Position numbers and translations under genes: made by a program. The notes beneath the pieces are model-generated. The model had not been told where the DNA came from and did not search any database. It was given only the letters and a program-made list of their open reading frames with translations. 56,973 nucleotides of DNA from a virus (Duplodnaviria > Caudoviricetes). Positions within the stretch are counted from its first letter, which is position 1; every line of letters begins with the position of its first letter. This document shows, piece by piece, positions 14,418-43,579 of the stretch. The stretch covers positions 1 to 56,973 of the IMG/VR virus record IMGVR_UViG_3300026546_000005. One strand, written 5' to 3'.

Positions 14418-14461
14418 TTTTTAAATATTTTTTTGTAAATATAACTATTTTTATTTATTTT

Positions 14462-19034: not shown

Positions 19035-19091
19035 AAAATAATTTATAATAATAAATTAATATATATAATTAAAATAGATGTATTTAAAAAT

Positions 19092-19673: not shown

Positions 19674-19694
19674 AAAAAATAATTAATTATAAAT

Positions 19695-20258
19695 ATGTTA
19701 CCACATTTTGTAAATTTAATATCAACAAATACTAAATATGAACCAATATATAAAAATTTATTTGAAGTTATTGTTACATTACCTCCAATTATTGAAACAA
19801 CAGATTCAAGTAGATTAATATTAGAAAATGTAAATCAATTTACTGGATTAAATGATGTGTTTAAATCATTAGAACCAACAAACCAACAATTTAAATATTC
19901 TTTCAGGAATTACCTTAAAACTCCTGCAACGACAACAATTGATTTTTCAATAAATTTAAATATAAATCAATCTGATAAAAAAGTAATGGAAACGTGGGTT
20001 TTAATGAAACGTTGGTATGATTTAATTTGGAATAGTCAAACTGGTGAATTACATTATAAAAATGATTATATTGGTAATGTAACGATTCAAGTGCATGATA
20101 GAACTGGAGAAGTAATTCGCAGAGTTGATTTTGTAAATGCATTTATAAAATCAATTAGTGGTTTCACTTTTTCTTGGGGAAATTCGGATATAATTAAAGA
20201 TGTAAAAGTTGATTTTAAAGCTGACTATTGGATTGATACATATTTTGATGCAATATAA
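19695..20258 (+). CDS. Tail tube protein (T4 gp19-like), copy 2
   Basis: Clear tandem paralog (KRWYDL.WNSQTGELHYKN, ADYWIDTYFD). Confidence 0.7.
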   Translation: MLPHFVNLISTNTKYEPIYKNLFEVIVTLPPIIETTDSSRLILENVNQFTGLNDVFKSLEPTNQQFKYSFRNYLKTPATTTIDFSINLNINQSDKKVMETWVLMKRWYDLIWNSQTGELHYKNDYIGNVTIQVHDRTGEVIRRVDFVNAFIKSISGFTFSWGNSDIIKDVKVDFKADYWIDTYFDAI

Positions 20259-29994: not shown

Positions 29995-30061
29995 ATAAAT
30001 AAGTATTTAAAATTATCATTTACTTTTTATCAATACTTATATATGATTAAATTTATAATGT

Positions 30062-30646
30062 TTAATAAATAATTAATTTTTTAACAGCTTCTTCATTATT
30101 AGTATTAACAACAATAAATATAATTCCAGTAATTGAATTAAAATTTGTTTCTGTTGTGTTTGGATATAGTATTAATAATAATCGACCTGTTACATCATAC
30201 ATTTTTACTTCATTTATAATATCATCTGCTGTAACATATATTACTCTATTATTTTCTCTAACATTTATTTTAGATATAGGTGTTTTATAATCTTGCGTTG
30301 GTATATATATTCGTCCATAATAAATTGTATTTGCAACTAATTCTTCATTTCCTGCTGAATCAACCCAGTATGAAAAACGTTCATTTTCATAATGTTCAAC
30401 TCTATATGTTAAATACTCATTATTTAAACTATCATAGGAATAAAAATATATTTCTGTTTCTGTTTCAAACCATTTTCCATATAATTCCCAATTATTTAGA
30501 CTGTCTTTTTTATAAAAAAACGTATTTTGACCATTATACACAGCTTTAAGCGTAGCAGTATCATTAACATATGTTACTAAACTATCTAATTGTGCTGTAA
30601 CGTTATATGTTATAAATAATAATAAAAAAGTAATTAAATATTTCAT
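30062..30646 (-). CDS. Secreted protein with T9SS type A C-terminal sorting domain
   Basis: Sec signal ending TA-Q; C-terminal MYDVTGRLL...GIIFIVV...KKLII. Confidence 0.65.
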   Translation of the reverse strand: MKYLITFLLLFITYNVTAQLDSLVTYVNDTATLKAVYNGQNTFFYKKDSLNNWELYGKWFETETEIYFYSYDSLNNEYLTYRVEHYENERFSYWVDSAGNEELVANTIYYGRIYIPTQDYKTPISKINVRENNRVIYVTADDIINEVKMYDVTGRLLLILYPNTTETNFNSITGIIFIVVNTNNEEAVKKLIIY

Positions 30647-30694
30647 ATCATATATATTTTATTTAAAAATATTTTTTTATTTAAAAAAATGTAT

Positions 30695-30702
30695 TATATT
30701 TG
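30695..30702 (+). promoter_or_regulatory. TAnnTTTG promoter of tRNA operon 1
   Basis: TATATTTGTAAAAC, also found upstream of operon 2. Confidence 0.7.
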
Positions 30703-30739
30703 TAAAACAAACATAAAAAACTTTATATATATTATTGAT

Positions 30740-30817
30740 ATGAAAAATATAATTGTCCATATGAGTTCAAGTAGTTCGCACGTAAGTGTAGGCTATGATT
30801 ATGTGTTACTCATATAA
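30740..30817 (+). CDS. Attenuator leader peptide 1 MKNIIVHMSSSSSHVSVGYDYVLLI
   Basis: Ser/His/Val codon run matches the downstream tRNAs; lies between promoter and terminator. Confidence 0.85.
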   Translation: MKNIIVHMSSSSSHVSVGYDYVLLI

Positions 30818-30837
30818 GGATAATATAAAAATAATTT

Positions 30838-30878
30838 AAAAATCCCTTGGGTAACACACTCAAGGGATTTTTTATTTT
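30838..30878 (+). terminator. Attenuator terminator (3:4) of tRNA operon 1
   Basis: AAAATCCCTTGGGT/ACTCAAGGGATTTT hairpin plus T tract directly before the first tRNA. Confidence 0.85.
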
Positions 30879-30883
30879 AATAA

Positions 30884-30978
30884 GGATGGGTTATCCGAAA
30901 GATTGCAGGGTACCGGAAACGGTCTTGAAAACCGTTACCGCCTCGTCGGCGGTGTGGGTTCGAATCCCACCTCATCCG
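30884..30978 (+). tRNA. tRNA-Ser(UGA), enlarged D loop
   Basis: GGATGGG/CTCATCC acceptor, ACGGT-CTTGAAA-ACCGT, long variable arm, TTCGAAT. Confidence 0.85.
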
Positions 30979-30983
30979 CAAAT

Positions 30984-31068
30984 GGAGAGTTGGCCGAGTT
31001 GGTAAGGCACCAGATTGCTAATCTGAGATGAGGTAATACTTGCGCGAGTTCGAGTCTCGCACTCTCCG
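30984..31068 (+). tRNA. tRNA-Ser(GCU)
   Basis: GGAGAGT/ACTCTCC, anticodon loop TTGCTAA, long variable arm. Confidence 0.9.
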
Positions 31069-31075
31069 CTAACAT

Positions 31076-31150
31076 ACCCCTATAGCTCAGTTGATTTAGA
31101 GCACCTGACTTACATTCAGGAGGTCGTAAGTTTGAATCTTACTAGGGGTA
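31076..31150 (+). tRNA. tRNA-Val(UAC)
   Basis: ACCCCTA/TAGGGGT, CCTGA-CTTACAT-TCAGG. Confidence 0.9.
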
Positions 31151-31160
31151 CTTTTAATAT

Positions 31161-31249
31161 GGGACGTGTAACCGGTAATTGGTGTCCGACCTGATTGTGG
31201 CTCAGGAATCTCTAAAGAGACTATGGGAGTTCGAATCTCCTCACGCCCC
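31161..31249 (+). tRNA. tRNA-His(GUG), atypical (long variable arm)
   Basis: G-1:C73, CCTGA-TTGTGGC-TCAGG, TTCGAAT T loop, extra TCTC-TAAA-GAGA arm. Confidence 0.75.
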
Positions 31250-31253
31250 CATT

Positions 31254-31841
31254 TTATTTAATAGACCATGACCAACCACATTTACCCACACTTGTAATTT
31301 TACCAGTTCTATCTAGTTCAAACATATTTATTTCTTCATCAGTAAAACTTTCATCCATATTTACAAATCCCAATTTTCGATCTTTTAATTCTTTTAAAAC
31401 TGAACCAATTAAACCATTTATTGATAATAACGTTTCAGGTAATTTTAACCACGGATTCGTAACACCTAAAGCAGATGTTAAAGTTTCAATACTTTTGTTA
31501 ACGTTATCTTTTTTAAAAACTCTTGTAATGTGTTTCATAACTTCACCCGTATTTCTAGTTGTTTCTCTTGACTGAACAACCCACATTCTAACTCTAACTG
31601 AATTATGTTTAGGCATATTTTTTTCAAGTAATATTAAACCGTTTGTGTCACCGTCACCATCAGCTTCAAAATCAATTCTATTATCATCCATTTTTCTTAA
31701 TTTTATTGGTTCACTTGGAATAACAGATATTAATGTTTTATCTTTATCTGATGGATCATCTGTTGCAAGTATCATATATAAATTCCAACGTTTACGTTTA
31801 CGTAATATTTCTATAAAATCTAATTCTAATCTAACTTTCAT
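31254..31841 (-). CDS. Hypothetical protein
   Basis: 195-aa ORF with normal composition. Confidence 0.65.
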   Translation of the reverse strand: MKVRLELDFIEILRKRKRWNLYMILATDDPSDKDKTLISVIPSEPIKLRKMDDNRIDFEADGDGDTNGLILLEKNMPKHNSVRVRMWVVQSRETTRNTGEVMKHITRVFKKDNVNKSIETLTSALGVTNPWLKLPETLLSINGLIGSVLKELKDRKLGFVNMDESFTDEEINMFELDRTGKITSVGKCGWSWSIK

Positions 31842-31910
31842 AAACTTTTATTTTTATTTTATTTATACATATTGTATATTTGTATATAATTTTAAAATGT
31901 TTATACTAAA

Positions 31911-32084
31911 ATGAGTTTAATTAATAAAATTAAAAAGATTACAATACCATTAAAACATTTATTTCATAAAAAATGCTCAAAATGTTCTATTGGTTATATT
32001 ATTATTGATCACGAAGAATATATTAATAATAGTTTTGTAATAACTGTATATAAATGTAATTATTGTAATGAAAAATACATATAA
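31911..32084 (+). CDS. Small Zn-ribbon protein (not in the ORF track)
   Basis: 57 aa, CSKC...CNYC; TATATTTG at 31875-31882. Confidence 0.55.
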   Translation: MSLINKIKKITIPLKHLFHKKCSKCSIGYIIIDHEEYINNSFVITVYKCNYCNEKYI

Positions 32085-32141
32085 AATTTAAAACAATTTT
32101 AATTAACATATTATATTAATTAAATATATTTTAATATAATT

Positions 32142-32690
32142 TTGAGTTATATAAAATTATGTGTAGTAAATAAAAAACATTTAGAAGGAATAATACAATA
32201 CGCAAATAAAGCAGCTAAATATTATCAATCAAATAATAGAACATTAGATCAAAAAATAAATCATATTATAATTGGTAAAATCGCTGAATATTTAATATAT
32301 CAAACATATATTGATGAGTTCACTAAACCAAATTTTAATATAACAACTGAACCTGATCCAGGTTGGGACATGATACATATTCCAACTAAATTAAAACTAG
32401 ACGTAAAAAAACAAGTTGACATTAAACATCTAAATTTAAAAACAAACGAATTAAAAGCTGATGTATATTGTTCATTCGTTGAAATAAAATATGATTTAAA
32501 TGTAGGAACAATGGAAGGTTTATTTGAAGGATTTGTTTCAGCAAAAGATTTAATGTTTAATTTAAAAGAATCAACAAATCCTTATTATCGTAAAAAAGGA
32601 TATAAATTTTATGTATTTAAAAATAATATAAATTGGACGTTTAATATAAATGATATAAAAATAAACGAATTAAATTATGGAAATAAGTAA
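32142..32690 (+). CDS. Putative PD-(D/E)XK-fold nuclease-like protein
   Basis: GKIAE...PD.GWD...LDVK pattern. Confidence 0.45.
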   Translation: MSYIKLCVVNKKHLEGIIQYANKAAKYYQSNNRTLDQKINHIIIGKIAEYLIYQTYIDEFTKPNFNITTEPDPGWDMIHIPTKLKLDVKKQVDIKHLNLKTNELKADVYCSFVEIKYDLNVGTMEGLFEGFVSAKDLMFNLKESTNPYYRKKGYKFYVFKNNINWTFNINDIKINELNYGNK

Positions 32691-32847
32691 AGAAAAATTA
32701 CAAATATTAGTAGATTACTTTTTTAAAACCGCGATGTATTGCGATGAATTAAATATTTATGAACGTGAACAAGCAGATGACGATTTGTCAAATATGAAAG
32801 AGTGGGTAGAAGACACTTTTGGACGAGATTTGGAAGAAATTAGTTAA
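32677..32847 (+). CDS. Small acidic hypothetical protein (not in the ORF track)
   Basis: 56-aa ORF MEISKEKLQ...LEEIS overlapping the upstream stop. Confidence 0.5.
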   Translation: MEISKEKLQILVDYFFKTAMYCDELNIYEREQADDDLSNMKEWVEDTFGRDLEEIS

Positions 32848-32885
32848 TTTTTTGTAAAATATTTTTTTTATTTAAAAAAATATTT

Positions 32886-32893
32886 TATATTTG
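32886..32893 (+). promoter_or_regulatory. TAnnTTTG promoter of tRNA operon 2
   Basis: TATATTTGTAAAAC. Confidence 0.7.
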
Positions 32894-32929
32894 TAAAACA
32901 AAGAAGAAAAACTGTATATATAATTAACG

Positions 32930-33010
32930 ATGAGAACAAATTATTTACATATTAACGACATATTTAGTTTTCCCTTCCCACAGGAATGGATTGCTCTATT
33001 TGTGACTTAA
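32930..33010 (+). CDS. Attenuator leader peptide 2 MRTNYLHINDIFSFPFPQEWIALFVT
   Basis: F-S-F-P-F-P run matches downstream tRNA-Pro and tRNA-Phe. Confidence 0.8.
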   Translation: MRTNYLHINDIFSFPFPQEWIALFVT

Positions 33011-33035
33011 TATGTAAGTAAATTATAAAATTTTT

Positions 33036-33077
33036 AAAAGTCCCAAGTAGAGCTAAAATTCAACTTGGGACTTTTTT
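33036..33077 (+). terminator. Attenuator terminator (3:4) of tRNA operon 2
   Basis: AAAAGTCCCAAGT/ACTTGGGACTTTT hairpin plus T tract, 5 nt before tRNA-Pro. Confidence 0.85.
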
Positions 33078-33082
33078 ATTAT

Positions 33083-33156
33083 CGAGTAGTAGTTCAGTCA
33101 GGTAGAATACGTGCTTTGGGAGCACGGGGTCGGGGGTTCAAGTCCCTCCTACTCGA
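33083..33156 (+). tRNA. tRNA-Pro(UGG)
   Basis: CGAGTAG/CTACTCG, CGTGC-TTTGGGA-GCACG. Confidence 0.92.
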
Positions 33157-33163
33157 CATATTC

Positions 33164-33237
33164 GGAGATATAGCTCAGTAGCGTAGAGCAATGGACTGAA
33201 AATCCATGTGTCCCTGGTTCAATTCCAGGTATCTCCA
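33164..33237 (+). tRNA. tRNA-Phe(GAA)
   Basis: GGAGATA/TATCTCC, ATGGA-CTGAAAA-TCCAT. Confidence 0.92.
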
Positions 33238-33290
33238 CTAAGAATTAAAAAAAATATAAACTTTTATTTTTTTATTATAATAAAATGTAT

Positions 33291-33298
33291 TATATTTG
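33291..33298 (+). promoter_or_regulatory. TAnnTTTG promoter upstream of the Ro60/TROVE gene
   Basis: TATATTTG 50 nt before the ATG. Confidence 0.6.
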
Positions 33299-33347
33299 TA
33301 ATTCTTAAAGTTTAATAGTAATAATTTAAAAACAAAAATCTTTAAAC

Positions 33348-34931
33348 ATGGCTAAATTTAACAAAAAAACAGAAAAAGAGACTCTTATTAATGACATGGG
33401 TCAAAAAGCATTCAAACTTTCTCCAAAGGAAGAGTTAATATCAACTGTATTAACTACATTTGTTACTAATTCATTTTATGAATCAGAAAACGAAATATTG
33501 GATAGAATTCGTAAAGCCATGTCAAAATGCGATACTGAATTTGTCGCAAAGACTGCTTTATACACAAGACGTGATGCAAATATGCGTAGTTCATCACACG
33601 TGTTAGCTGGCGAATTAGCACAACGTGCAGCAGGAAAGGAATGGGCTAAAAGATTCTACAAAAATATTTGTGTTCGTCCTGATGATATGGCAGAAATTTT
33701 GGGTTATTACTTAAATGTAATTCGTGAAGGTTCTGATGGTAAAAAAATACCTAATTCAATGAAAAAAGGATTTAAAGCTAAACTTGAATCTTTAGATCCA
33801 TATTTAATTGACAAATATAAAATGAAAAGACGCGCAATTAAGTTAATTGATTTAGTTAATTTATTTCATCCAAAACCAAATGAAAAAAATGCTGAAGCAT
33901 TTAAACGTTTACGTGATGGTATGCCTTTAGATGATCTTTATACTTCTAAAATTCTTGAAAAAGAAATGTCTAAAGCCGGACAAAACACAGAAGATAAAAA
34001 AGAAGCTAAAGCAACTGCTATTCGTGAAACATTAACTGCGAATGAAAGTAAGTCACCAATTTTTAACTTAGTTAGAAATTTACGTAACATACTTGAAAGC
34101 ACACCAGATATGGTTGATGATGTAGTAACAAACATTACAAATCGTGATAAAATTTTAAAATCACGCATGTTACCATTTAGATTTGCAACTGCATATGCTG
34201 AAGTTGAAAAACTTAATGCAGTTGATAGAGACGCAAAAACTAAAGTTTTAAATGCACTTGAAACTGCAATTAATTACTCATGTGAAAATATTCCTGAGTT
34301 ATTTGGTAATACTGCTATATTAATTGACCATTCAGGTTCAATGAGAGGTAGTAACGGTAGTGGATCATCAAAAGTATCTGCATTTTCAGATGTAACAACA
34401 TCTATTATTGCTAATTTATTTGGAGTAATGCTAATGCAATCTCAAGATAATGTATACATGGGATTATTTGGTGACAGACTTGTAACAGTAAAAGACATTG
34501 ATCGTTCAAAAGGTGTTTTAAAAACACATAAAGAAGTTCATAAATTAGGTTCAACATGTGGCCTTAGTTCAGAACATGGTTTATTCGAGTTTTTTGCTGA
34601 CGTTGTTAGACATAGAGTTAGAGTTGATAATGTTATCATATTTTCAGATATGGTAATTGGTTCTAACAGCTGGTATGGTCGCGGATCAATTGGGGACATT
34701 AGAACAGGTTCTGGATCGTTTAATTCATTGTTTAAACGCTTTAAAGAACTAAATCCTTTAGCAAATATAGTATCAGTAAACTTACATGATACTAAAGGAA
34801 CAACAGTCTTTAATAAAAAACTTGGTGTTACTCAAATTTCTGGATGGTCTGAAAAGATTTTTGATGTATTGAAAAATATGTCTAAAGGTTATGAAGATAT
34901 AATTGCAGAAATTGAAGCAATTAAACTTTAA
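33348..34931 (+). CDS. Ro60/Rsr-like TROVE-domain RNA-binding protein
   Basis: G..AF.LSP..EL, FYE, ALY.R....MR, RPDD, KY, L.DL..L.HPKP, LVRNLRN, SR.LPFRF, vWA DHSGSM. Confidence 0.9.
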   Translation: MAKFNKKTEKETLINDMGQKAFKLSPKEELISTVLTTFVTNSFYESENEILDRIRKAMSKCDTEFVAKTALYTRRDANMRSSSHVLAGELAQRAAGKEWAKRFYKNICVRPDDMAEILGYYLNVIREGSDGKKIPNSMKKGFKAKLESLDPYLIDKYKMKRRAIKLIDLVNLFHPKPNEKNAEAFKRLRDGMPLDDLYTSKILEKEMSKAGQNTEDKKEAKATAIRETLTANESKSPIFNLVRNLRNILESTPDMVDDVVTNITNRDKILKSRMLPFRFATAYAEVEKLNAVDRDAKTKVLNALETAINYSCENIPELFGNTAILIDHSGSMRGSNGSGSSKVSAFSDVTTSIIANLFGVMLMQSQDNVYMGLFGDRLVTVKDIDRSKGVLKTHKEVHKLGSTCGLSSEHGLFEFFADVVRHRVRVDNVIIFSDMVIGSNSWYGRGSIGDIRTGSGSFNSLFKRFKELNPLANIVSVNLHDTKGTTVFNKKLGVTQISGWSEKIFDVLKNMSKGYEDIIAEIEAIKL

Positions 34932-34933
34932 AA

Positions 34934-34963
34934 AAGGAGAGGAATTTTATATTCCTCTCTCTT
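34934..34963 (+). terminator. Hairpin / probable terminator after TROVE
   Basis: GGAGAGGAAT/ATTCCTCTCT; weak U tract. Confidence 0.55.
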
Positions 34964-35005
34964 AAAAAAATAAAACAAATATTTTTATTTTAATGTAAAA
35001 TATAT

Positions 35006-35013
35006 TATATTTG
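35006..35013 (+). promoter_or_regulatory. TAnnTTTG promoter of the Y-RNA-like cluster
   Basis: TATATTTG 7 nt before the first stem. Confidence 0.7.
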
Positions 35014-35020
35014 TAAAAAC

Positions 35021-35103
35021 AAACTAAAGATAGTAAGTTTAAAAGTTACATCGTTTATAGGGGAAATAACAATTCACTTTTAACATTAAATCTTCTTTAG
35101 TTT
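35021..35103 (+). ncRNA. Y-RNA-like element 1 (no tRNA domain)
   Basis: AAACTAAAGA/TCTTTAGTTT outer stem, TAGT, TTAAAAGT/ACTTTTAA inner stem, TACATCG motif; downstream of Ro60. Confidence 0.65.
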
Positions 35104-35131
35104 AAAAAACGATCTTTAATATAAATGACAT

Positions 35132-35272
35132 AAATAAGATAGTGAGTAATTTTATTACATCGAGAACAATTAGCTTAGTTGGTTGAGCACTGCCCTTTCA
35201 CGGTAGAGGTCGTCGGTTCGATCCCGACATTATTCTATAAATACATATAAAATTACAGCATTCTTCTTATTT
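35132..35272 (+). ncRNA. Y-RNA-like element 2 enclosing a complete tRNA-Glu(UUC)-like cloverleaf (35164-35236)
   Basis: AAATAAGA/TCTTATTT, GTAATTTTAT/ATAAAATTAC, TACATCG; CTGCC-CTTTCAC-GGTAG; GTCGG-TTCGATC-CCGAC. Confidence 0.7.
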
Positions 35273-35281
35273 TTTCAACTT

Positions 35282-35419
35282 GGCGAGGACAGACAACACA
35301 TTAATATTAAACGTTCTCTGTTCATAGTAGTAATAATATTAATTACATCGATTAGCGATATTGGTTTCGCACCTTGGTTTTGGTCCAAGTCTATGCGGGT
35401 TCGATTCCCGCCCTCGCCG
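35282..35419 (+). ncRNA. Element 3: tRNA-Gln(UUG)-like RNA with the Y domain inserted between the acceptor 5' strand and the D arm
   Basis: GGCGAGG(35282-88)/CCTCGCC(35412-18); insert with ATTAATATTA/TAATATTAAT, TAGT, TACATCG; CTTGG-TTTTGGT-CCAAG. Confidence 0.7.
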
Positions 35420-35426
35420 CGAATTT

Positions 35427-35570
35427 TAAAGTTGGATAGTGATAAAAAACGTTACTTCGTAGCTCAGATGGGTAGAGCAATTGACTGCAGATCAATGGGT
35501 CGTTGGTTCAACTCCAACCGAAAACGTTAATTCGTTTTCTTCACGTTTTTTAAACGTACTTCCAACTTTA
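35427..35570 (+). ncRNA. Y-RNA-like element 4 with tRNA-Cys(GCA)-like D, anticodon and T arms and a loop-closed acceptor-like hairpin
   Basis: TAAAGTTGGA/TCCAACTTTA, TAAAAAACGT/ACGTTTTTTA, TACTTCG; ATTGA-CTGCAGA-TCAAT; GAAAACG/CGTTTTC. Confidence 0.7.
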
Positions 35571-35588
35571 TTTTTTAAACCTGTTATA

Positions 35589-36338
35589 ATGAAAGTTAAA
35601 AAACAAACAGAGCAAACATTTAAATTTGTAAAATCTATAAAATTTGGTAGAACTGACTTACCAACACTTGTTTTTATATTTGGTTATCCGTTTAAAATAA
35701 AGGAACATTTTAATTATGACGGAAATTTTTATTATATTGATAGTCATTATAATAAAGCATTAGTTTATCCGTCTCCTTTTTTAAATATAAAAGATTTATC
35801 ACGTGTAATTGCTAAAGAATTATTATCTAAATTAAAAACTTCAGATGTAGTTTTAGTTGGTTACTCTCTTGGTGCAGTATATTCATTAGAAATATCTAAA
35901 ATATTAGAAGAAAATAATATTAATGTAAAATTACAATTATTAATTGATCCAATTGATACAATATATAATTTTAATACTAAATTATACAATAAATTAAGAT
36001 ATTCTTTTTGTTTTACTGCTTTATTTAGTCGATATTTAATATTTAGTTTTTTAGTAAAATTGCAAAACATATTTAATTTTAAAATTATTACTAGATCAAT
36101 TTATATTAATTCAGTGTATAGAATACATTTATTACGCTATAATTTTTCTTATAATAATATAAATACAATTTTAATTAAAAACTCTACTAATTGTAATAAA
36201 ACTAAATATAGTTGGATTGATATTTTTAAAAAAGATAATATTGATTTAAAAGTGTTTAATGCTAAAAAACATTCTGATTTTTTCTTTAATGAAAGTATAT
36301 TAAAAAAATGGATTAATATACTAAAATTAAATATATAA
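35589..36338 (+). CDS. Stand-alone thioesterase (alpha/beta hydrolase), paralog of the NRPS TE domain; start revised to ATG 35589
   Basis: GYSLG, LIDP, KKHSDFF; NYDG.FYYIDSHYN shared with the 55357 protein. Confidence 0.75.
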   Translation: MKVKKQTEQTFKFVKSIKFGRTDLPTLVFIFGYPFKIKEHFNYDGNFYYIDSHYNKALVYPSPFLNIKDLSRVIAKELLSKLKTSDVVLVGYSLGAVYSLEISKILEENNINVKLQLLIDPIDTIYNFNTKLYNKLRYSFCFTALFSRYLIFSFLVKLQNIFNFKIITRSIYINSVYRIHLLRYNFSYNNINTILIKNSTNCNKTKYSWIDIFKKDNIDLKVFNAKKHSDFFFNESILKKWINILKLNI

Positions 36339-36359
36339 CTGAAAATAAAATTATTATAT

Positions 36360-36665
36360 ATGGCAACATTAGGAAGTAATTTAGATAAGGTTAAAATAAT
36401 TAAACAAAATAATTCAATTATAATAATTGAAACATTTAGTAATCAACAATACTCTGGATTAGGTAGAGGTGAATATGCGTCATTAAGTGCTGAAGAAAGT
36501 ATTACTGTACATAATATTCAAAATATTGTAGTATCTATTAAAAATGAAATAGTTGTTATAAAATCTGCAATGGGAGTTATGCATTCATTTAACATAAATA
36601 TAGTTGAAACTGAAGGATTTAAATTTAAAACTGAATTAGAATTTATTCAAAATTTAATAAAATAA
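36360..36665 (+). CDS. Hypothetical protein
   Basis: ORF in operon. Confidence 0.6.
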   Translation: MATLGSNLDKVKIIKQNNSIIIIETFSNQQYSGLGRGEYASLSAEESITVHNIQNIVVSIKNEIVVIKSAMGVMHSFNINIVETEGFKFKTELEFIQNLIK

Positions 36666-36671
36666 AATATT

Positions 36672-36977
36672 ATGAAATCACAAAATAAAACGAGTTCAGA
36701 ATATTTAAATGATTTGTTAAATACATTAACAAATTCAACTGTTATTAGTGATAAATTTATAAATTATATTTTACAAATAGCAAATAAATCTATTGCTGAT
36801 AATTTTAAATCTGGAAAAAATAATGATGACGAAATATTTGATCATTATAAAAAATTAGTAAAAGAATTTCATTATATAACAATATTTAGTACACATTTTC
36901 AAAATTTAGTATTAGGTATTATACACGATTGTATAACTACAGCATATGAAGAAGGACAAAAAGAAAGGGCTAATTAA
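36672..36977 (+). CDS. Hypothetical protein
   Basis: ORF in operon. Confidence 0.6.
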   Translation: MKSQNKTSSEYLNDLLNTLTNSTVISDKFINYILQIANKSIADNFKSGKNNDDEIFDHYKKLVKEFHYITIFSTHFQNLVLGIIHDCITTAYEEGQKERAN

Positions 36978-36997
36978 AATAATTAGCCCTTTCTTTT
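36958..36997. terminator. Bidirectional intrinsic terminator
   Basis: AAAAGAAAGGGCTAATTA/TAATTAGCCCTTTCTTTT between convergent genes. Confidence 0.8.
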
Positions 36998-37011
36998 ATT
37001 GTTTATTAAAA

Positions 37012-37461
37012 TTATTGAATTTCAATTTTTTTAACTTCTTTAGCTTCTTCAATTTCTTTAACATTCTTTTTCAATGTTACAGTTAAAATACCTTTATCAA
37101 AAGATGCATTTATATCATCTTCTTGAACATCTTCAGGTAATGTAAAGCTTCTTTCAAACATATTATATTTAAATTCTCTACGGATGTAATTTTTATCTTC
37201 TACTTTCTTTTCACTTTCATTTTTAGATTTAATAGTTAACATATTATCCTTAATAAATACATCCACATCTTCTTTTCCTGCACCTGGCAATGAAACTTCT
37301 AATTGATAGTTATCATCATTTTCAATAACGTTTACTTTTCCAAAATCATTGCCAGATAACGATTGCAATGGACGATAAAATAAATCATCCATAAAATTAT
37401 TACCAAAAAAGTCATCTAATAGACTTGGTAAATATCCTGGAGTTCTTTTCATTAACATCAT
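37012..37461 (-). CDS. Small heat-shock protein Hsp20/alpha-crystallin
   Basis: VNV.E, LPG..KEDV, YIRREF.Y..FERSFTLPE, ASFDKGILTV, IEI tail. Confidence 0.92.
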   Translation of the reverse strand: MMLMKRTPGYLPSLLDDFFGNNFMDDLFYRPLQSLSGNDFGKVNVIENDDNYQLEVSLPGAGKEDVDVFIKDNMLTIKSKNESEKKVEDKNYIRREFKYNMFERSFTLPEDVQEDDINASFDKGILTVTLKKNVKEIEEAKEVKKIEIQ

Positions 37462-37490
37462 AGCTTTATTATTTTTTTATTAAATATAGT

Positions 37491-37531
37491 ACAAAAACTA
37501 TGCCAAATTAAAAATTATGACAATTTGTCAT
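37491..37531 (-). promoter_or_regulatory. Sigma54-like -24/-12 element plus inverted repeat upstream of hsp20
   Basis: Minus strand TGGCATAGTTTTTGT (consensus TGGCACGN4TTGC); ATGACAA-T-TTGTCAT at 37517-37531. Confidence 0.45.
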
Positions 37532-38148
37532 TTATTTATGACATTTTTGATATAAAAATTAAGTATTCGTAAACGTTCTTGATCTTTAACTGCAATTAGC
37601 CATTGATATGCTAAATTTTTTTCTATAAAATCAGATTTTTCTTCCATTTTTTCAATTTGAGTTTCAACTTGTTCAATAACATTTTCATCAATTGTAACTT
37701 CTATATCTAATTCAATTGCAGTTTTATATAATGTTATTATATCATGTGAACTATATGCATCTGATGCTTCTGAATACAATTCAAGTTGTTTTTGTGTTGG
37801 ATTTTTTAATTTATCTGGATGAATTTGTTTTGATATTTCATGAAAAATTTTTTGTTCAAATTCACTAGAAGGTGTTTTTTCTGTTATATTTTGCGTATTA
37901 TTATTTTCATCATTAAATCCATTTGTACCATTTTGATTTTTAAATTTAACATCAATTTTCTGTGGATTTATTATATTATTAAATTTTTTTAATAAATCAG
38001 GTTTATCTTTTAATAATTTATTTACTTCACTTAAAAACTTTGGTTCTGCTTCATGCACAATTTCAGTTTTATATTCTATTTCATTAGAATAATAATTATA
38101 TTTAGATAATAAAGTTTTTAATTTTAATTGTAATAATGCATTATTCAT
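37528..38148 (-). CDS. J-domain-like protein
   Basis: IFHEISKQIHPDKL...LYSEA..AY; adjacent to hsp20. Confidence 0.65.
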   Translation of the reverse strand: MNNALLQLKLKTLLSKYNYYSNEIEYKTEIVHEAEPKFLSEVNKLLKDKPDLLKKFNNIINPQKIDVKFKNQNGTNGFNDENNNTQNITEKTPSSEFEQKIFHEISKQIHPDKLKNPTQKQLELYSEASDAYSSHDIITLYKTAIELDIEVTIDENVIEQVETQIEKMEEKSDFIEKNLAYQWLIAVKDQERLRILNFYIKNVINK

Positions 38149-38199
38149 ATTTAATTATAATATTAAATGTAAAATTGTTTAAGTAATATATATTTTAAA

Positions 38200-38433
38200 A
38201 TGATACACATCATGAAAGTAAAAATTATAAATATTCCAAAATATTCATATGAATATTTAGTTACTAATTTTAAACATAAAGTTGAAGATGACATTACTCG
38301 TGATGAGTATCGATTAGGCATTAAAAAAAGATTAATATTAATTAAAAAAAACGATATTGTTGAACGTGCAATATTTTTTAATGGTCAAAAATCTATTGAT
38401 TTGCCTTTAAATTGGTACTCAATTATCGATTAA
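38200..38433 (+). CDS. Hypothetical protein
   Basis: Short ORF. Confidence 0.45.
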   Translation: MIHIMKVKIINIPKYSYEYLVTNFKHKVEDDITRDEYRLGIKKRLILIKKNDIVERAIFFNGQKSIDLPLNWYSIID

Positions 38434-38975
38434 TAAATATCATTAATATTATTTAATGGTATATTATTTTTATAAGTTGACGCAAGTTTTAATAACTTAT
38501 TTCCAATTTGATACGCAGATGTAACTATTTCTCCGTCAATCCATATATCACCATTTTTATCTATTGTTAATAAATTTTCATTATTTATTTGTTCATTTAA
38601 ACATGGTTCATCTACTATATTGCCATATTCATCTTTAACTGGATTTGAATAATATTGATGTGCTATATATTCAAAAAAATTAACAGGTATACTTACAGAA
38701 ATATTTTTAGTTATAAATGACGAAATGTAATTTAAATATTGTTTAATATCATATAAATCATTACTAAATTCATCTATTTTATTTAATCCAGTATGAATAT
38801 TTAAATACTCTTCAACAACATTTAATCTTGAATTTGTATTAACTTCTAAGGTATAAAATGAATTTTGTAAATCATTTATATCATTTTTTACATTTATAAT
38901 ATTCAATTCAGTTTTTAACAACTCAATTTCAGTTTTAAGTTCATTTAATTTATTTTCAATTTCAGTTATATCCAT
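38430..38975 (-). CDS. Hypothetical coiled-coil protein
   Basis: N-terminal heptad pattern. Confidence 0.55.
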   Translation of the reverse strand: MDITEIENKLNELKTEIELLKTELNIINVKNDINDLQNSFYTLEVNTNSRLNVVEEYLNIHTGLNKIDEFSNDLYDIKQYLNYISSFITKNISVSIPVNFFEYIAHQYYSNPVKDEYGNIVDEPCLNEQINNENLLTIDKNGDIWIDGEIVTSAYQIGNKLLKLASTYKNNIPLNNINDIY

Positions 38976-39073
38976 CTAAATATTAGTGTTTAATTATTAT
39001 ATTTAATATATTTTAATAGTTTAAGTAAGTATTATTAAAAAAATATATATACAATAAATATAATATTTTAATT

Positions 39074-40519
39074 GTGGCTGATAATACAAGACGCACATTA
39101 CATTTTGAAGATGGTGGAAGACCATACAATAATACTGATTTTAATGCAATACAAAATTCTATAAATGATGCACAAACTTTTTTAAATAGCATTATTAATA
39201 AAAATGGAGTATTAAAAAATAATACAACATTATATAATAAATCAGTATGGATTTTAGATGGATTTAAAAATAATAGTGGTGATTACACTTTAGGAGAATC
39301 TGGTTTAATATGGTTAGATGGAAAAATAAGATATGTCGAATATCGAGATTTTTCTAATATAAATGAAGATGCATATATTGAAGCAATAAATTCTGAAGAA
39401 AGTAGATTATATAAAGATGGTAATGTTAAAAAAGTTTTTAATGTTTATTCTGCAAAATGGTTATTATTATCAGAACTAGATACTAATAATGTGCATGCAA
39501 AATTTTCTTCTACATCTGATATAGCAAATTCAGTTTTAGATGAAAGTGCATATCTTAAATCAATAATTGCTAGACAATCTAGTACAAGTACATCTGTAAT
39601 ACCTTTAACTGGTAATATTACATTTGAAGGGAGAAATGGATTTAAAGTATATAGAGATGATAATAATGTTAAAAAATTAGTTTTAGAACAAGCAGATCCG
39701 GAAGAATTTGTACATCCACCAATTCAAAATTATTGGCAACCATTTACAGTAACAGTAAGTGCAGGTAAAATTATATCAAGTATTAGTGTAACACCTGATG
39801 ATAGATGTGCACCTAATTGTGGTCAAGGACACATTGAATCATTTAGTGTATCAACAGACAATTTTAAATTATCTAATTCTAATAGAGCTGTAACAACTGG
39901 TTCAGATGGATCACTAACAACTAGTGCTGTAACTGCAACTGAATTAGGATATTTAGATGGAGTAACTAGTTCAATACAAGATCAACTTGACGATAAACTA
40001 AATTTAACTGGTGGTAAAATTAATGGTGATTTAGTTGTCACTGGAGATTTATTTGTTGATGGTACTATTAAATCTAACGATGATATTATTGCGTTTGCTG
40101 GTGAATCAATTCCATCATTAATAAATAATAATACACAAACAGCACAAGTTCAAACAAACTGGGAAAATTTAACTGGATTTACATCTGAATACGAATCAGA
40201 TCAATACAATGTTGCTCAATATCGAATTGATTCAAGTGGTAATGTTCATTTAAAAGGAATAGTTAAACGAAAAGTTGGTAAAATAATATCCGATGAATTA
40301 TTTATAGTATTTCCTAATGAATTAAATCCATCGACAAATATTGATAGTGTTTTTAATGTTGCAAGCGTAGAATTAAAAGAATTCACATATATTAATATAA
40401 AATTTGATGGTACTAATTTTACAGGTGCTATTAAAATAATGAATAAAAATACAAATGAAGAATCTGATTATACCACAGCAATTTATTTAGATGGTATAAT
40501 ATATAATAAAATAATATAA
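39074..40519 (+). CDS. Tail-fibre-related protein
   Basis: N-terminus (L.F..GGRPYNN.DF..IQ; G..WL.GK.RYV) homologous to the 7866-12014 fibre; ELGYLDGVTSSIQ.QL fibre motif. Confidence 0.7.
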   Translation: MADNTRRTLHFEDGGRPYNNTDFNAIQNSINDAQTFLNSIINKNGVLKNNTTLYNKSVWILDGFKNNSGDYTLGESGLIWLDGKIRYVEYRDFSNINEDAYIEAINSEESRLYKDGNVKKVFNVYSAKWLLLSELDTNNVHAKFSSTSDIANSVLDESAYLKSIIARQSSTSTSVIPLTGNITFEGRNGFKVYRDDNNVKKLVLEQADPEEFVHPPIQNYWQPFTVTVSAGKIISSISVTPDDRCAPNCGQGHIESFSVSTDNFKLSNSNRAVTTGSDGSLTTSAVTATELGYLDGVTSSIQDQLDDKLNLTGGKINGDLVVTGDLFVDGTIKSNDDIIAFAGESIPSLINNNTQTAQVQTNWENLTGFTSEYESDQYNVAQYRIDSSGNVHLKGIVKRKVGKIISDELFIVFPNELNPSTNIDSVFNVASVELKEFTYINIKFDGTNFTGAIKIMNKNTNEESDYTTAIYLDGIIYNKII

Positions 40520-40531
40520 AATAAGATTGCA

Positions 40532-41023
40532 ATGAAACATTTATTAAACATACATAATATATTAGAAAATAATTCAGATGATATTTTAAACAAAATTCTT
40601 GATAAAATATCTGAAAATGATATTGATTCATTAACAGATAAAGAAAAATGGTTATTAAAAAATTACGGTAAAACAGAAAGAGATTATGATATTGAGCATG
40701 GATTAATAAATCCTGAAGATGAAGAAAAAAATAATTATCATAATGATTCAGATTCTAATGTTATAGAAGAAATTGATTGGCAATTTAGAAATGATTTATT
40801 AAATTTATGCGAGTACAATCAAATTTACGATTTAAAAAAAATGCCACAAAATTATTGGATATTATCTTTTGAATCAGATTCAAATGTTGCACAAGATGTA
40901 AGACAATTATTATTTAAATATCATAATAAAATAAGAGTTCAGCAAACTAAAAAAGATTACATAAATTTAATTGAAATAATTATTCCAGAAGAAGATGGTG
41001 AATGGTTAAATAGTAGAATTTAA
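40532..41023 (+). CDS. Hypothetical protein (DUF6576-like ILDKIS...SLT..EK motif)
   Basis: LNKILDKISENDIDSLTDKEK. Confidence 0.55.
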   Translation: MKHLLNIHNILENNSDDILNKILDKISENDIDSLTDKEKWLLKNYGKTERDYDIEHGLINPEDEEKNNYHNDSDSNVIEEIDWQFRNDLLNLCEYNQIYDLKKMPQNYWILSFESDSNVAQDVRQLLFKYHNKIRVQQTKKDYINLIEIIIPEEDGEWLNSRI

Positions 41024-41341
41024 TGTATCTATTTTTTCGCACCTAGACAACGCTTCGTTTGTTGTATTACGAATTGTATTTTCCCAATTTACATTAACTG
41101 CATCTTTATTAACACACATATTTTGTCCCTTATATTTAAATTTAATAAGAGTTGTTTTTACTTTTTCACCTGGATCATACATGTAAAAGAATCCATTAAA
41201 CATTTCACCTGATTTAATTATAAGAATAACTTCTTCAATCTCTGCTCCTTTATCTTGTAAATATTGCATATATTGTTTAGTCATATATTTAATATTTTCA
41301 GAGCCATTCCAGCCTTCATATGTAATTGGATATTCATTCAT
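41006..41341 (-). CDS. Hypothetical protein (start revised to MNEYPI)
   Basis: The longer ORF-track start runs through a terminator and tRNA-Thr. Confidence 0.55.
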   Translation of the reverse strand: MNEYPITYEGWNGSENIKYMTKQYMQYLQDKGAEIEEVILIIKSGEMFNGFFYMYDPGEKVKTTLIKFKYKGQNMCVNKDAVNVNWENTIRNTTNEALSRCEKIDTLNSTI

Positions 41342-41361
41342 ATAGTATATATTTAAAAAAT

Positions 41362-41393
41362 AAAGCACTTTAGTAAATACTAAAGTGCTTTTT
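41362..41393 (-). terminator. Terminator closing tRNA operon 3
   Basis: AAAGCACTTTAGTA/TACTAAAGTGCTTT. Confidence 0.75.
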
Positions 41394-41394
41394 G

Positions 41395-41467
41395 AGCCTC
41401 CAGGCAGACTCAAACTGCCGACCTACGGGTTACAAAGCCGTTGCTCTATCAACTGAGCTATGGAGGC
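41395..41467 (-). tRNA. tRNA-Thr(UGU)
   Basis: GCCTCCA/TGGAGGC, loop TTTGTAA. Confidence 0.9.
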
Positions 41468-41472
41468 ATTTG

Positions 41473-41546
41473 TGGGCCTTGTAAGGCTTGAACTTACGAC
41501 CCCCTGATTATGAGTCAGGTGCTCTAACCAACTGAGCTAAAGGCCC
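41473..41546 (-). tRNA. tRNA-Ile2(CAU, lysidine type)
   Basis: GGGCCTT/AAGGCCC, CCTGA-CTCATAA-TCAGG; the leader of this operon is rich in AUA and has no internal AUG. Confidence 0.85.
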
Positions 41547-41553
41547 TTAATTG

Positions 41554-41626
41554 TGGCCCGTGTGGGATTTAAACCCACGACCTATTCATTAAAAGTGAAT
41601 GGCTCTATCAACTGAGCTAACGGACC
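41554..41626 (-). tRNA. tRNA-Lys(UUU)
   Basis: GGTCCGT/ACGGGCC, ATTCA-CTTTTAA-TGAAT. Confidence 0.9.
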
Positions 41627-41668
41627 AATTATATAACATCTTTAAATAAATATTTCCAAAGATCGTTG

Positions 41669-41742
41669 TGGAGAAGGCGGGGCTCAAACCCGCGGCCTCC
41701 GCAGTGCAAGTGCGGTGCTCTAGTCAACTGAGCTACGTCCCC
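41669..41742 (-). tRNA. tRNA-Ala(UGC)
   Basis: G3:U70, CCGCA-CTTGCAC-TGCGG. Confidence 0.9.
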
Positions 41743-41748
41743 ATGTAT

Positions 41749-41781
41749 AAAAAAACCGGGTAACTTTTTGTTACCCGGTTT
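41749..41781 (-). terminator. Attenuator terminator (3:4) of tRNA operon 3
   Basis: Minus strand AAACCGGGTAAC-AAAAA-GTTACCCGGTTTTTTT, 6 nt before tRNA-Ala. Confidence 0.88.
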
Positions 41782-41804
41782 CATTGGTATTAACCACTAA
41801 AAAT

Positions 41805-41879
41805 TTAAATGAGAACACGAGTAACATGACGATATTTTATCGCCTTTTTTATTGTTGTTATTATCGTTATTGTTCTCAT
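41805..41879 (-). CDS. Attenuator leader peptide 3 MRTITIITTIKKAIKYRHVTRVLI
   Basis: 13 consecutive Thr/Ile(AUA)/Lys/Ala codons match the four downstream tRNAs. Confidence 0.9.
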   Translation of the reverse strand: MRTITIITTIKKAIKYRHVTRVLI

Positions 41880-41925
41880 ATCTTTATTATATATAGAGTT
41901 TTTTGTTTCTGTTTTATTATATATG

Positions 41926-41933
41926 CAAATATA
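41926..41933 (-). promoter_or_regulatory. TAnnTTTG promoter of tRNA operon 3
   Basis: TATATTTG on the minus strand about 46 nt before the leader ATG. Confidence 0.7.
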
Positions 41934-41957
41934 AATAAAAGTTTTAAATAAAAAAAA

Positions 41958-42650
41958 TTATTTATAAAAAAAATCATAATTTTTTTCTCCAAGCATTTGC
42001 CTATAGTATGTTATTTCTTTTTTATTTGTATTAATATTATTAAATAATATTTGTTTGTATTCGTCACGCATTTCAATATACAACACATTTGAATTAGCAA
42101 CTACACCAATAATATCATCAACAGATTCTTTTAATGATATATTATTATTTAATTTATTGTTAATTTTTTCAATAAATGTGTCATTAGTTAAATTTAGTTG
42201 TTTATCAATAAAATGTATATAAGCATCACCAGTTAATATATGTTGATAATATTCATATATGTTTGTTATTGTATTATATTCCCACGGAAAAATATTATAT
42301 GTGCATATTTTATTATTTACTCTAATTTCTTGTTCAACTTTTAAATTATATTTATTAATTAATTGAATAAATTCTTCTTTTAATGGTTCAATTGCATTTA
42401 ATATAAACCCATCTTTATTATAAATAAAAACACAATATTTAAATACATCACTTAAAATATGAAGTTTACGCGTTAATTTTGAAATTTCAACAGCAATATT
42501 AGAGTTATTCCAACTATATAATTGCTCATTTTCATAAAACAATCGTCCAGTTGGAAATGCGTATAAAATAGTTAAAGGATCAATTGGAATGTTAGAAGGT
42601 AATACCTTATTAACAATAATCCATGATCCTTTATCTGGTATTATATTCAT
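41958..42650 (-). CDS. Hypothetical protein
   Basis: 230-aa ORF, TATATTTG at 42672-42679 (minus). Confidence 0.6.
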   Translation of the reverse strand: MNIIPDKGSWIIVNKVLPSNIPIDPLTILYAFPTGRLFYENEQLYSWNNSNIAVEISKLTRKLHILSDVFKYCVFIYNKDGFILNAIEPLKEEFIQLINKYNLKVEQEIRVNNKICTYNIFPWEYNTITNIYEYYQHILTGDAYIHFIDKQLNLTNDTFIEKINNKLNNNISLKESVDDIIGVVANSNVLYIEMRDEYKQILFNNINTNKKEITYYRQMLGEKNYDFFYK

Positions 42651-42703
42651 AGTGTAATATTATTTATACTACAAATATAATAATATATTATTAAACTTAA
42701 AAA

Positions 42704-43579
42704 TTACGCACTATATTTTTCTTTTAATTTTTGAAGTTCGTTTTTAGCTTGTTCAATTTTTTTCTCATATTCTTCTTTTATTGAATTACTTCCTTTTGAT
42801 GATTTAAACATTAATAAATTAGATTGCCAATTTTTTATTTGAGATTCTAAATTTATTATTTTTTTATAAAGATTTTTATCTTCTTTATGCGCTCTATATT
42901 GTGTAAAAAAATAATCGCATGCTTCCTTAAATTGTTGGTATTGTTCATCTCTTACTTTTTTTGGCACTTCACCAATTTCTTTCCATCGTTTTTGAATATC
43001 TTTAATTTTATTAGCTATTTTTACCCAATCAGTATTATCTTTTAATTGTTCAACTTCTTCAATTAATAATTTTTTTAAATTGTAATTTGCTTGACGTGAT
43101 TCATCTAAACGTTTAAAGAAATTTTTCTTATTTTTAAAAAACTGCTTATATTTTTGCCAAAATTTTTTATTTAATTCTTTTTGTTCTTCTCTTGACATAT
43201 TTTTAACACGAACATTTTTCCAATCATTTTCAAGTGATTTTATTTCATCAGTTTTTTTATTCCAATCATCTATTCTATCAGAATCAAAAGATAAAAACTC
43301 ATCAAGTTTATTATATAATTGTATTTTTTTATTTTTATTTAATTCATTTAATGAATGATGAATACGATTTCTATTATTATAATAAATTTTCAATAACGCG
43401 CTAAAATTGTGATTTATATTTTCAACATTTGGAATTTCTCCTAAATCATACCATTTTTTTCGTATATCTTGAAATTCTTTATATTTTGAAATATTTTCAT
43501 CATTGTTTACAAATTCTCTAAGTTCATTCAAAATTTGTTTTTTAAGATTGATAATTTCTTCAACGTTTTTTACTTTCAT
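42704..43579 (-). CDS. DUF349-domain protein
   Basis: Repeats of K.IQ..WK.IG.VP......W..F...CD.FF. Confidence 0.8.
   Translation of the reverse strand: MKVKNVEEIINLKKQILNELREFVNNDENISKYKEFQDIRKKWYDLGEIPNVENINHNFSALLKIYYNNRNRIHHSLNELNKNKKIQLYNKLDEFLSFDSDRIDDWNKKTDEIKSLENDWKNVRVKNMSREEQKELNKKFWQKYKQFFKNKKNFFKRLDESRQANYNLKKLLIEEVEQLKDNTDWVKIANKIKDIQKRWKEIGEVPKKVRDEQYQQFKEACDYFFTQYRAHKEDKNLYKKIINLESQIKNWQSNLLMFKSSKGSNSIKEEYEKKIEQAKNELQKLKEKYSA

Follow-up and report, generated by a model that had tools for sequence, protein, structure and literature searches.

Three transfer RNA (tRNA) operons in the virus record IMGVR_UViG_3300026546_000005 (Duplodnaviria; Caudoviricetes) are each preceded by a short open reading frame (ORF) and a strong terminator, and in this phage and its distant relatives the codons of such ORFs covary with the tRNAs encoded downstream. 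Here, we describe these units, which are probably ribosome-mediated attenuators of the trp/his type placed ahead of tRNA operons, feeding decoding speed back onto tRNA transcription. To our knowledge, leader-peptide attenuation is known only upstream of protein-coding genes (those for amino-acid biosynthesis, synthetases and resistance); judged from sequence, the attenuated tRNA operons would be a variant of this known regulation in which the regulated genes are new. The window, meaning the whole stretch of DNA analysed, is the complete IMG/VR record (56,973 bases, linear, 24.6% G+C), and its CheckV completeness estimate of 26% makes it a fragment of a roughly 200-kb phage.

The three units, called A, B and C, share the layout that a first-pass annotation of this DNA had described, with a TAnnTTTG promoter-like site, a leader ORF of 24-26 amino acids, a strong terminator and then the tRNAs, and checking of the coordinates bore this out. 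Their parts are as follows, with numbered regions and hairpins as predicted.

30677-31250, plus strand: unit A, promoter to last tRNA
30677-30702, plus strand: promoter-like site of A, TTATTTAAA...TATATTTG, from pattern count and alignment of the units
30716-30733, plus strand: 5' box of A, between promoter and ATG
30740-30817, plus strand: leader ORF A, 25 amino acids, MKNIIVHMSSSSSHVSVGYDYVLLI
30755-30790, plus strand: regulatory run of leader A, codons 6-17, rich in Val/His/Ser
30752-30766, plus strand: region 1 of A, alternative partner of region 2
30802-30822, plus strand: region 2 of A, pairing with region 1 or with the terminator 5' arm
30838-30872, plus strand: terminator A, a hairpin with a 15-pair stem and a loop of 5 nucleotides (nt), with T tract to 30880
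30884-30977, 30984-31069, 31076-31151 and 31162-31250, plus strand: operon A tRNAs, respectively Ser(UGA)-like, Ser(GCU), Val(UAC) and His(GUG)
32868-33238, plus strand: unit B, promoter to last tRNA
32868-32893, plus strand: promoter-like site of B
32907-32924, plus strand: 5' box of B
32930-33010, plus strand: leader ORF B, 26 amino acids, ...FSFPFP...
32963-32980, plus strand: run of leader B, codons 12-17, TTT AGT TTT CCC TTC CCA
32992-33009, plus strand: region 2 of B (antiterminator arm)
33036-33075, plus strand: terminator B, from the minimum-energy fold, with T tract to 33082
33083-33238, plus strand: operon B tRNAs, Pro(UGG) and Phe(GAA)
41951-41394, minus strand: unit C, promoter to last tRNA
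41951-41926, minus strand: promoter-like site of C
41903-41886, minus strand: 5' box of C
41879-41805, minus strand: leader ORF C, 24 amino acids, MRTITIITTIKKAIK...
41873-41835, minus strand: run of leader C, codons 3-15, 13 consecutive Thr(ACR), Ile(ATA), Lys(AAR) and Ala(GCG) codons
41827-41813, minus strand: region 2 of C, resembling the terminator 3' arm
41782-41752, minus strand: terminator C, with T tract to 41743; the terminator scan lists the hairpin as 41753-41781
41742-41394, minus strand: operon C tRNAs, Ala(UGC), Lys(UUU), CAU (Met or Ile2) and Thr(UGU)
41391-41362, minus strand: end-of-operon terminator of C

All three leader ORFs run from ATG to TAA and lie 38-47 nt 3' of the promoter motif, and the terminators consist of stems of 13-15 pairs followed by a T tract. 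As first annotated, the tRNAs start immediately downstream of the terminator in all three units; the distance from the T tract is 3-6 nt rather than the 5-6 nt given at first. Since this leaves no space for a promoter, the tRNAs would be transcribed only via readthrough of the terminator. Positions 30000-43000 hold 8 terminator-like sites against 1.9±1.5 expected. The promoter pattern, in which TAnnTTTG is what we take to be the Bacteroidota promoter consensus, has 4 matches in the window (0.05 expected) and is conserved in the alignment of the units. The fourth match (44871-44895) was rejected as a unit, being inside a minus-strand gene with no leader after it. An 18-nt box, AAAAACTnTATATATAWT, has exactly 3 copies in the record, and a reversed-pattern control has 0. 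The common promoter and this box contradict the first-pass description of the three loci as unrelated. An exact scan of viral_contigs for the box returned at least 114 stretches; among the matches listed, beyond the window's own three, one unrelated stretch has a tRNA within 700 nt downstream, so that the box in its exact typed form is private to this phage.

Leader codons were compared with the tRNAs of each operon under strict wobble, against a background of equally long windows from the long ORFs of the phage itself. The four tRNAs of operon A read 11 of the 24 codons of its leader, a score reached by 0 of 14,710 background windows. In leader C 13 of 23 codons match, all 13 of them consecutive, and 3 of 14,755 background windows reach this number; the count drops to 8/23 if the CAU tRNA is Met and not Ile2. 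Leader B matches its own operon at 5 of 25 codons (378/14,665 background windows reach 5, p=0.026), or at 6 with wide wobble (p=0.017). The first-pass claim that each run spells the decoding set of its own operon thus holds for A and C and is weak for B taken alone. Matches to the other two operons number 0 and 4 for A, 3 and 2 for B, and 1 and 0 for C, and matches in the other two reading frames 3 and 1, 1 and 2, and 2 and 4, respectively. Of the window's 212 small ORFs starting with ATG, leader A ranks first on its operon (11; next 7) and leader C ranks first narrowly (13 vs 12).

Relatives of the phage were then compared: tRNAs were sought in 25 related records and are present in 17 of them, and 38 regions from 14 records were analysed with a pipeline blind to tRNA identity. 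The pipeline requires a terminator no farther than 130 nt ahead of a run of ARAGORN tRNAs, and takes as leader the ORF of at least 15 amino acids whose stop is nearest the terminator, read from its longest ATG. It found 75 tRNA runs, 31 of them with a terminator and 30 of these with an ORF, giving 30 units in the window and 9 relatives. Leader codons covary with tRNA content in these units, a check named beforehand in the first-pass annotation as one that could refute the idea: 270 of 867 codons match their own operon, compared to 115.9±15.2 when operons are permuted among leaders (maximum 189; 0 of 10,000 permutations reach 270). The signal is specific to the reading frame, with 31% of codons matched in frame and 12.8% and 11.6% in the +1 and +2 frames. 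Permutation within genomes gives 229 matches vs 111.6±19.0 (0/20,000), restricting CAU tRNAs to ATG leaves 259 (0/10,000), relatives without the window have 243 vs 104.6, and collapsing similar leaders (27 kept) gives 252 vs 108.3. A residue is enriched in the leader when the operon has its tRNA for 18 of 19 amino acids, Ile being the exception.

By eye, the relatives show the same succession of short ORF, strong terminator, T tract and tRNAs; their tRNA groupings differ and the leaders follow, as in these examples.

Leader FWHFHF: precedes His and Phe tRNAs
Leader IAIVEIAVIGGAEEGV: precedes Glu, Ala, Ile(UAU), Val and Gly tRNAs
Leader TTTTNRWHRRTRT: precedes His, Arg, Arg and Thr tRNAs
Leader QQQQQ: precedes Gln and Gln tRNAs
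Leader QQPQDQD: precedes Asp, Asp, Pro and Gln tRNAs
Leader FKHFSKKSFWF: precedes Lys, Phe, His and Trp tRNAs
Leader SSSSSR: precedes Arg, Ser and Ser tRNAs
Leader YYYEAE: precedes Glu and Tyr tRNAs
Leader NLTLNVVNITLCNIR: precedes Arg, Asn, Val, Ile, Cys, Thr, Ile and Leu tRNAs

The partners of tRNA-His vary among the phages and the leaders change likewise; in the window, His stands with Ser and Val behind the leader HMSSSSSHVSV. For unit A itself the pipeline chose an ATG inside the promoter, which dilutes its count to 9/41. At about 760-1010 (plus strand) of region L216 (genome G016), a Gln/Pro-rich frame (…QQWQQQQLPQQQ…) leads by eye into a terminator, with a tRNA-like sequence and tRNA-Pro(UGG) after it; the pipeline missed this real-looking unit, which makes its count conservative. 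As a negative control, TROVE-gene loci of another lineage with 88 tRNA operons yielded 7 pipeline units with 23/201 = 11.4% of codons matched. These 7 were rejected as spurious, several being translated tRNA T-arms, and the control match indicates that the architecture is typical of a clade and not universal. Its presence in 9 of 14 distant relatives by the pipeline points to a clade-wide strategy and not a curiosity of one contig.

Minimum-energy folds of all three leaders in the window predict a long 1:2 hairpin closing the ORF, together with the terminator (3:4), at stabilities that 0 of 200 shuffled sequences match (z of -6.4 for A, -7.9 for B and -6.3 for C). The alternative duplex between region 2 and the terminator 5' arm has a predicted energy of -15.8 kcal/mol in A (shuffled leaders -7.4, z -4.3), -20.6 in B (-8.3, z -5.2) and -13.1 in C (-6.9, z -3.5), again with 0/200 shuffles each. 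Relative to the stop codon, region 2 spans -13 to +7 in A, -16 to +1 in B and -20 to -6 in C. Over the 30 units the antiterminator has a mean z of -3.14, with p<=0.05 in 21. Leaders are predicted to bind their own terminators at -14.2 kcal/mol and foreign ones at -8.9, and the observed sum is attained in 0 of 20,000 permutations; 18 of 30 terminators have their own leader among the top three binders, and the window's three units all rank first. The geometry recurs as well, as region 2 begins 3' of the run in 26/30 units (median gap 11 nt) and ends within the ORF or at most 10 nt past the stop in 28/30. The stop codon lies 20-27 nt from the terminator stem in the window units (median 24.5 nt over the 30 units), a distance that rules out a pyrBI-type block of the terminator by the ribosome.

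Folding was repeated with the leader truncated before the terminator 3' arm and a 30-nt ribosome footprint masked, as an equilibrium calculation without kinetics. Placing the ribosome at the stop codon abolishes the 2:3 pairing in all 3 units; upstream pairing is then left for 0/25 nucleotides of the terminator 5' arm in A and 0/17 in B, and for 4/13 in C, where the partners are different and weak. When the ribosome is placed within the run instead, as for a stall, 2:3 is predicted at 5 of the 6 positions tested for A, all 3 for B and 6 of the 7 for C. Region 2 of B takes up 14 of the 17 nucleotides of the 5' arm unless the ribosome is at the stop codon, and region 2 of C takes up all 13 of 13 when it is stalled on codons 3-13.

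Covariation, frame specificity, helices with the unit's own terminator and geometry all fit attenuation as the first-pass annotation had interpreted it. From the sequence we infer a translated leader on which ribosome stalling governs termination, with aminoacyl-tRNA supply as the signal. Transcription would begin at the TAnnTTTG promoter, a ribosome would translate the leader of 24-26 codons and RNA polymerase would advance to the terminator. If the codons of the run are read fast, the ribosome would reach the 3' end of the ORF or its stop and cover region 2, upon which the terminator (3:4) would fold and the tRNA genes would not be transcribed. If any tRNA encoded in the operon is scarce, the ribosome would stall in the run and region 2, left free, would pair with the terminator 5' arm (2:3), allowing polymerase to read through into the tRNA genes. 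The new tRNAs would then speed up leader translation and close the gate, so each unit would be a multi-input negative-feedback controller that each input could open by itself.

Several results weigh against codon-specific attenuation as the function of these units. Leader B is not the top small ORF of the window for its operon (5 vs 9), being outscored by at least four others, and together with its p of 0.026 this means that unit B is not carried by its codons alone. Three of the 30 pipeline units match at most 2 codons (L202 1/30, L223 1/24, L231 2/17), and at least one further unit, the other one of L202 (4/22), looks spurious; one or two of the 30 are evidently not genuine. The 44 of 75 tRNA runs that have no terminator within 130 nt upstream make attenuation less than universal. 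The antiterminator has p>0.05 in 9 of 30 units, and no more than 12 of 30 terminators are bound best by their own leader. In truncated folds without a ribosome, B and C already form 2:3 and A alone keeps 1:2, so that a default-off state, in which no translation leads to termination, is predicted for A only. The alternative 1:2, 2:3 and 3:4 helices annotated at first are predicted in all three units, 1:2 in B and C only in the full-length folds. Across units, the third-base preference in four-fold boxes is not significant (61% vs 52% A/G-ending, p=0.18). Finally, a stalled ribosome reports charged tRNA, and alone it cannot separate a shortage of tRNA from a shortage of amino acid.

The ribosome-free folds lend some weight to the idea that the switch senses global translation, i.e. 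ribosome loading as set by infection stage or ribosome availability, with codon bias secondary. An untranslated leader of B or C would also open the gate, and the common promoter and 5' box suggest co-regulation of the three units. This is nevertheless unlikely, as it leaves unexplained both the own-operon codons in each leader and the change of leader with tRNA grouping, and ribosome-free unit A does the opposite, forming 1:2 with the terminator free.

Somewhat less likely still is a classical sensor of amino-acid starvation, reading host supply via tRNA charging and adjusting tRNA output to that. The blindness of a stalled ribosome to missing versus uncharged tRNA and the third bases of four-fold boxes are as this idea would have them; extra tRNA cannot relieve amino-acid starvation, however, and the loop would have no useful output. 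Codon choice also speaks against it at Ile, which over all units is ATA in 14 of 17 cases when the operon has only a UAU or CAU tRNA, compared to 20 of 56 when the operon lacks an Ile-reading tRNA (p=0.0009). In the runs of the window, 0 of 17 codons in four-fold boxes plus Ile end in T, a post hoc observation with a probability of 2.8e-5 under phage usage; T-ending codons make up 28-58% of phage-gene usage in those boxes. Phage genes favour the codons read by phage tRNAs (TCA 39%, AGT 26%, GTA 36%, CCA 63%, GCA 63%, ACA 56%, AAA 93%, ATA 44%). The runs of the window sample both wobble partners of most tRNAs, including codons that are rare in the phage (TCG 3%, CAC 14%, CCC 1%, TTC 6%, ACG 5%, AAG 7%, GCG 6%), and these rare wobble partners and the avoided T-ending synonyms may sharpen the sensor. 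The evidence for codon-level tuning is mixed: given the third-base result, tuning to codons and not to amino acids is supported only for Ile-ATA and, post hoc, in the window.

That the leaders are accidental ORFs in DNA of 24.6% G+C, and the hairpins leaky terminators or processing or stability elements, is very improbable. AT-rich DNA does make small ORFs rich in Lys, Ile and Phe common, and some small ORFs equal or nearly equal leaders B and C in score; the permutation, frame and within-genome tests (none of 10,000-20,000 permutations), the unit-specific complementarity of leader and terminator, the constant geometry across distant phages and the low match in the control lineage all go against chance. 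Direct RNA-tRNA contact of the T-box kind, with anticodon binding and no translation, is the least credible reading. Codon runs are by definition complementary to anticodons, but the window has no T-box or other riboswitch family at Rfam cut-offs, the match is tied to the frame of an ATG-to-stop ORF, and a run that mixes 6-24 codons for as many as 8 tRNAs is unlike a single specifier loop.

Within the preferred reading of attenuation by decoding speed, the units could more specifically be tRNA-loss alarms, in which host or phage destroys tRNAs, the leader stalls and the phage re-supplies exactly that set as a counter-defence; we regard this as a tentative idea, less likely to hold than to fail. 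The loss may come from defence anticodon nucleases or from phage-driven decay of the host translation apparatus, and the link to PrrC, PARIS and retrons drawn in the first-pass annotation is a possible, speculative one. The leaders of the relatives together span nearly all amino acids, and on these sequences general control of codon supply would fit at least as well as a link to nucleases.

Side observations in the relatives concern promoters and decoding. Boxes resembling TTTTAATATATA lie 5-15 nt ahead of leader ATGs, and in L210 and L214 such boxes are also found at leaders directly 3' of another tRNA and without a TAnnTTTG promoter. The 18-nt box of the window could be a second, phage-specific promoter, or a 5' untranslated or translation-initiation element. 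Ahead of the Glu and Tyr tRNAs of L210 (G009), a second TAnnTTTG-like promoter and a small hairpin stand 3' of the YYYEAE leader and its terminator; from this second promoter, some units may combine attenuated and unattenuated transcription. In L205 (G004) and L200 (G001) there are a tRNA of anticodon CUA, a would-be suppressor of TAG, and another whose anticodon is called as an odd four letters, hints of stop-codon recoding in parts of this clade.

No near relative of the record was found among GenBank phages, and distant blastn of the window gave matches confined to tRNA genes. Huge-phage records of 100-676 kb encode proteins with ~50% identity to the family-B DNA polymerase of the window (5818-7284). 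ARAGORN detects 10 tRNAs in the window and Rfam adds 2 (30884-30977 and 35456-35522). The first of these is a fourth member of operon A, which the first-pass annotation, listing Ser, His and Val, had omitted; ARAGORN missed it. It is 94 nt long, scores 47.7 bits with the Rfam Sec model (cut-off 47) and has the anticodon loop CUUGAAA, giving anticodon UGA and thus Ser. Its D region has a 16-nt insertion in addition to a long variable arm, and positions 30877-30983 share 75-80% identity with regions annotated as tRNA-Ser in several Vibrio phage records. The CAU tRNA of operon C, compared with 215 tRNAs of relatives, has another CAU tRNA as its top match (79%), with Lys and Asn tRNAs close behind; between Met and Ile2, the attenuation model predicts Ile2.

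The first-pass statement that all three tRNA operons of the phage have attenuators stands for units A, B and C and fails for a fourth tRNA-bearing cluster (35163-35522), which has its own promoter, no leader and no terminator and contains two tRNAs.

35163-35237, plus strand: tRNA-Glu of the leaderless cluster
35456-35522, plus strand: tRNA-Cys of the leaderless cluster, from Rfam

This cluster (35000-35560, plus strand) lies 3' of a gene (33348-34931, plus strand) for a TROVE/Ro60-like protein (Pfam PF05731, 53.5 bits; PHROG 'RNA-binding protein'). Between the Glu and Cys tRNAs is a tRNA-like element with a sub-threshold match to YrlA, a Y RNA-like family (35367-35506; 28 bits vs cut-off 69, E=7.7e-4), and the octamer TTACATCG is repeated ahead of the elements of the cluster. 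From its sequence, the TROVE gene with the leaderless cluster looks like a phage Ro60/Y-RNA module. The window's TROVE protein has no match in viral_contigs and one 30% relative in metagenome_contigs; in the protein database, relatives at 93%, 81% and 75% identity are found on 2-4 kb contigs. In leader B, the Phe/Pro run is followed by CAG GAA TGG (Gln, Glu, Trp; 32981-32989, plus strand), and ~2 kb 3' of this leader the Ro60 cluster has tRNA-Glu(UUC) and the tRNA-like element, whose anticodon loop is UUG (Gln, by eye).

Attenuators of enterobacteria include trpL, hisL and pheL as well as multivalent ones, such as thrL (Thr, Ile) and ilvL/ivbL (Ile, Val, Leu); in function, the multivalent ones and the pheST leader come closest to the phage units. 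The phage units resemble these in their promoter, short ORF with a codon run, 1:2/2:3/3:4 helices, terminator before the genes and sampling of several amino acids. They differ in being phage-borne, with Bacteroidota-type promoters, and in regulating tRNAs and not biosynthetic enzymes, so that the product would feed straight back on the sensor. In Rfam, His_leader RF00514 (29 bits, cut-off 49) and the trpB motif RF04312 (29 bits, cut-off 59) remain below threshold, each aligned over the terminator only, and on these scores the phage units are outside the Rfam leader families. The E. coli pheST operon (phenylalanyl-tRNA synthetase) is attenuated by the pheM leader in response to charged tRNA-Phe; there too a leader peptide rich in cognate codons controls a gene of the translation apparatus, but the target is a synthetase protein and the output restores charging, not tRNA copy number. 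T-boxes likewise sense tRNA status and choose between terminator and antiterminator ahead of translation-related genes; their contact with uncharged tRNA is direct, by way of a single specifier codon and the T-box sequence, and involves no ORF, whereas the phage signal depends on the reading frame of one.

No description of attenuator-controlled tRNA operons, of which the first-pass annotation likewise knew none, was found in the full-text literature, a search of main texts with most subscription journals outside its coverage. The words 'attenuat', 'leader' and 'terminator' are absent from the text of a 2026 jumbo-phage review. As far as the accessible parts of the sources go, the nearest published case of an inducible supernumerary tRNA set is the trn operon of Anabaena sp. 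PCC 7120, an inducible tRNA array with promoter-level control by direct repeats and the repressor TrcR (PMC8421152, PMC10272220). Like the phage units, that array is described in these parts as silent until translation is impaired; it is cellular and its induction global, whereas the phage units would be codon-specific in our proposal. The accessible text of PMC8421152 contains no 'leader', 'attenuat' or 'terminator', and that of PMC10272220 no 'leader' or 'attenuat' ('terminator' was searched in the former only).

If the attenuation reading is true, the regulated product is the very molecule measured by the sensor, the most direct feedback loop on decoding capacity that can be conceived, and the units would be the first codon-specific control of tRNA gene transcription, as far as is known. 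Such control would explain how huge, extremely AT-rich phages can fit their tRNA supply to their codon demand and yet not flood the cell. With it, the tRNAs of each transcription unit, and the CAU tRNAs that read ATA, could be predicted from sequence only, and the small modular promoter-leader-terminator units would be usable in synthetic biology as reporters of the availability of a chosen tRNA. Should the more tentative idea of a tRNA-loss alarm also hold, a giant phage would be running closed-loop, codon-resolved control of its own decoding capacity as a counter-defence.

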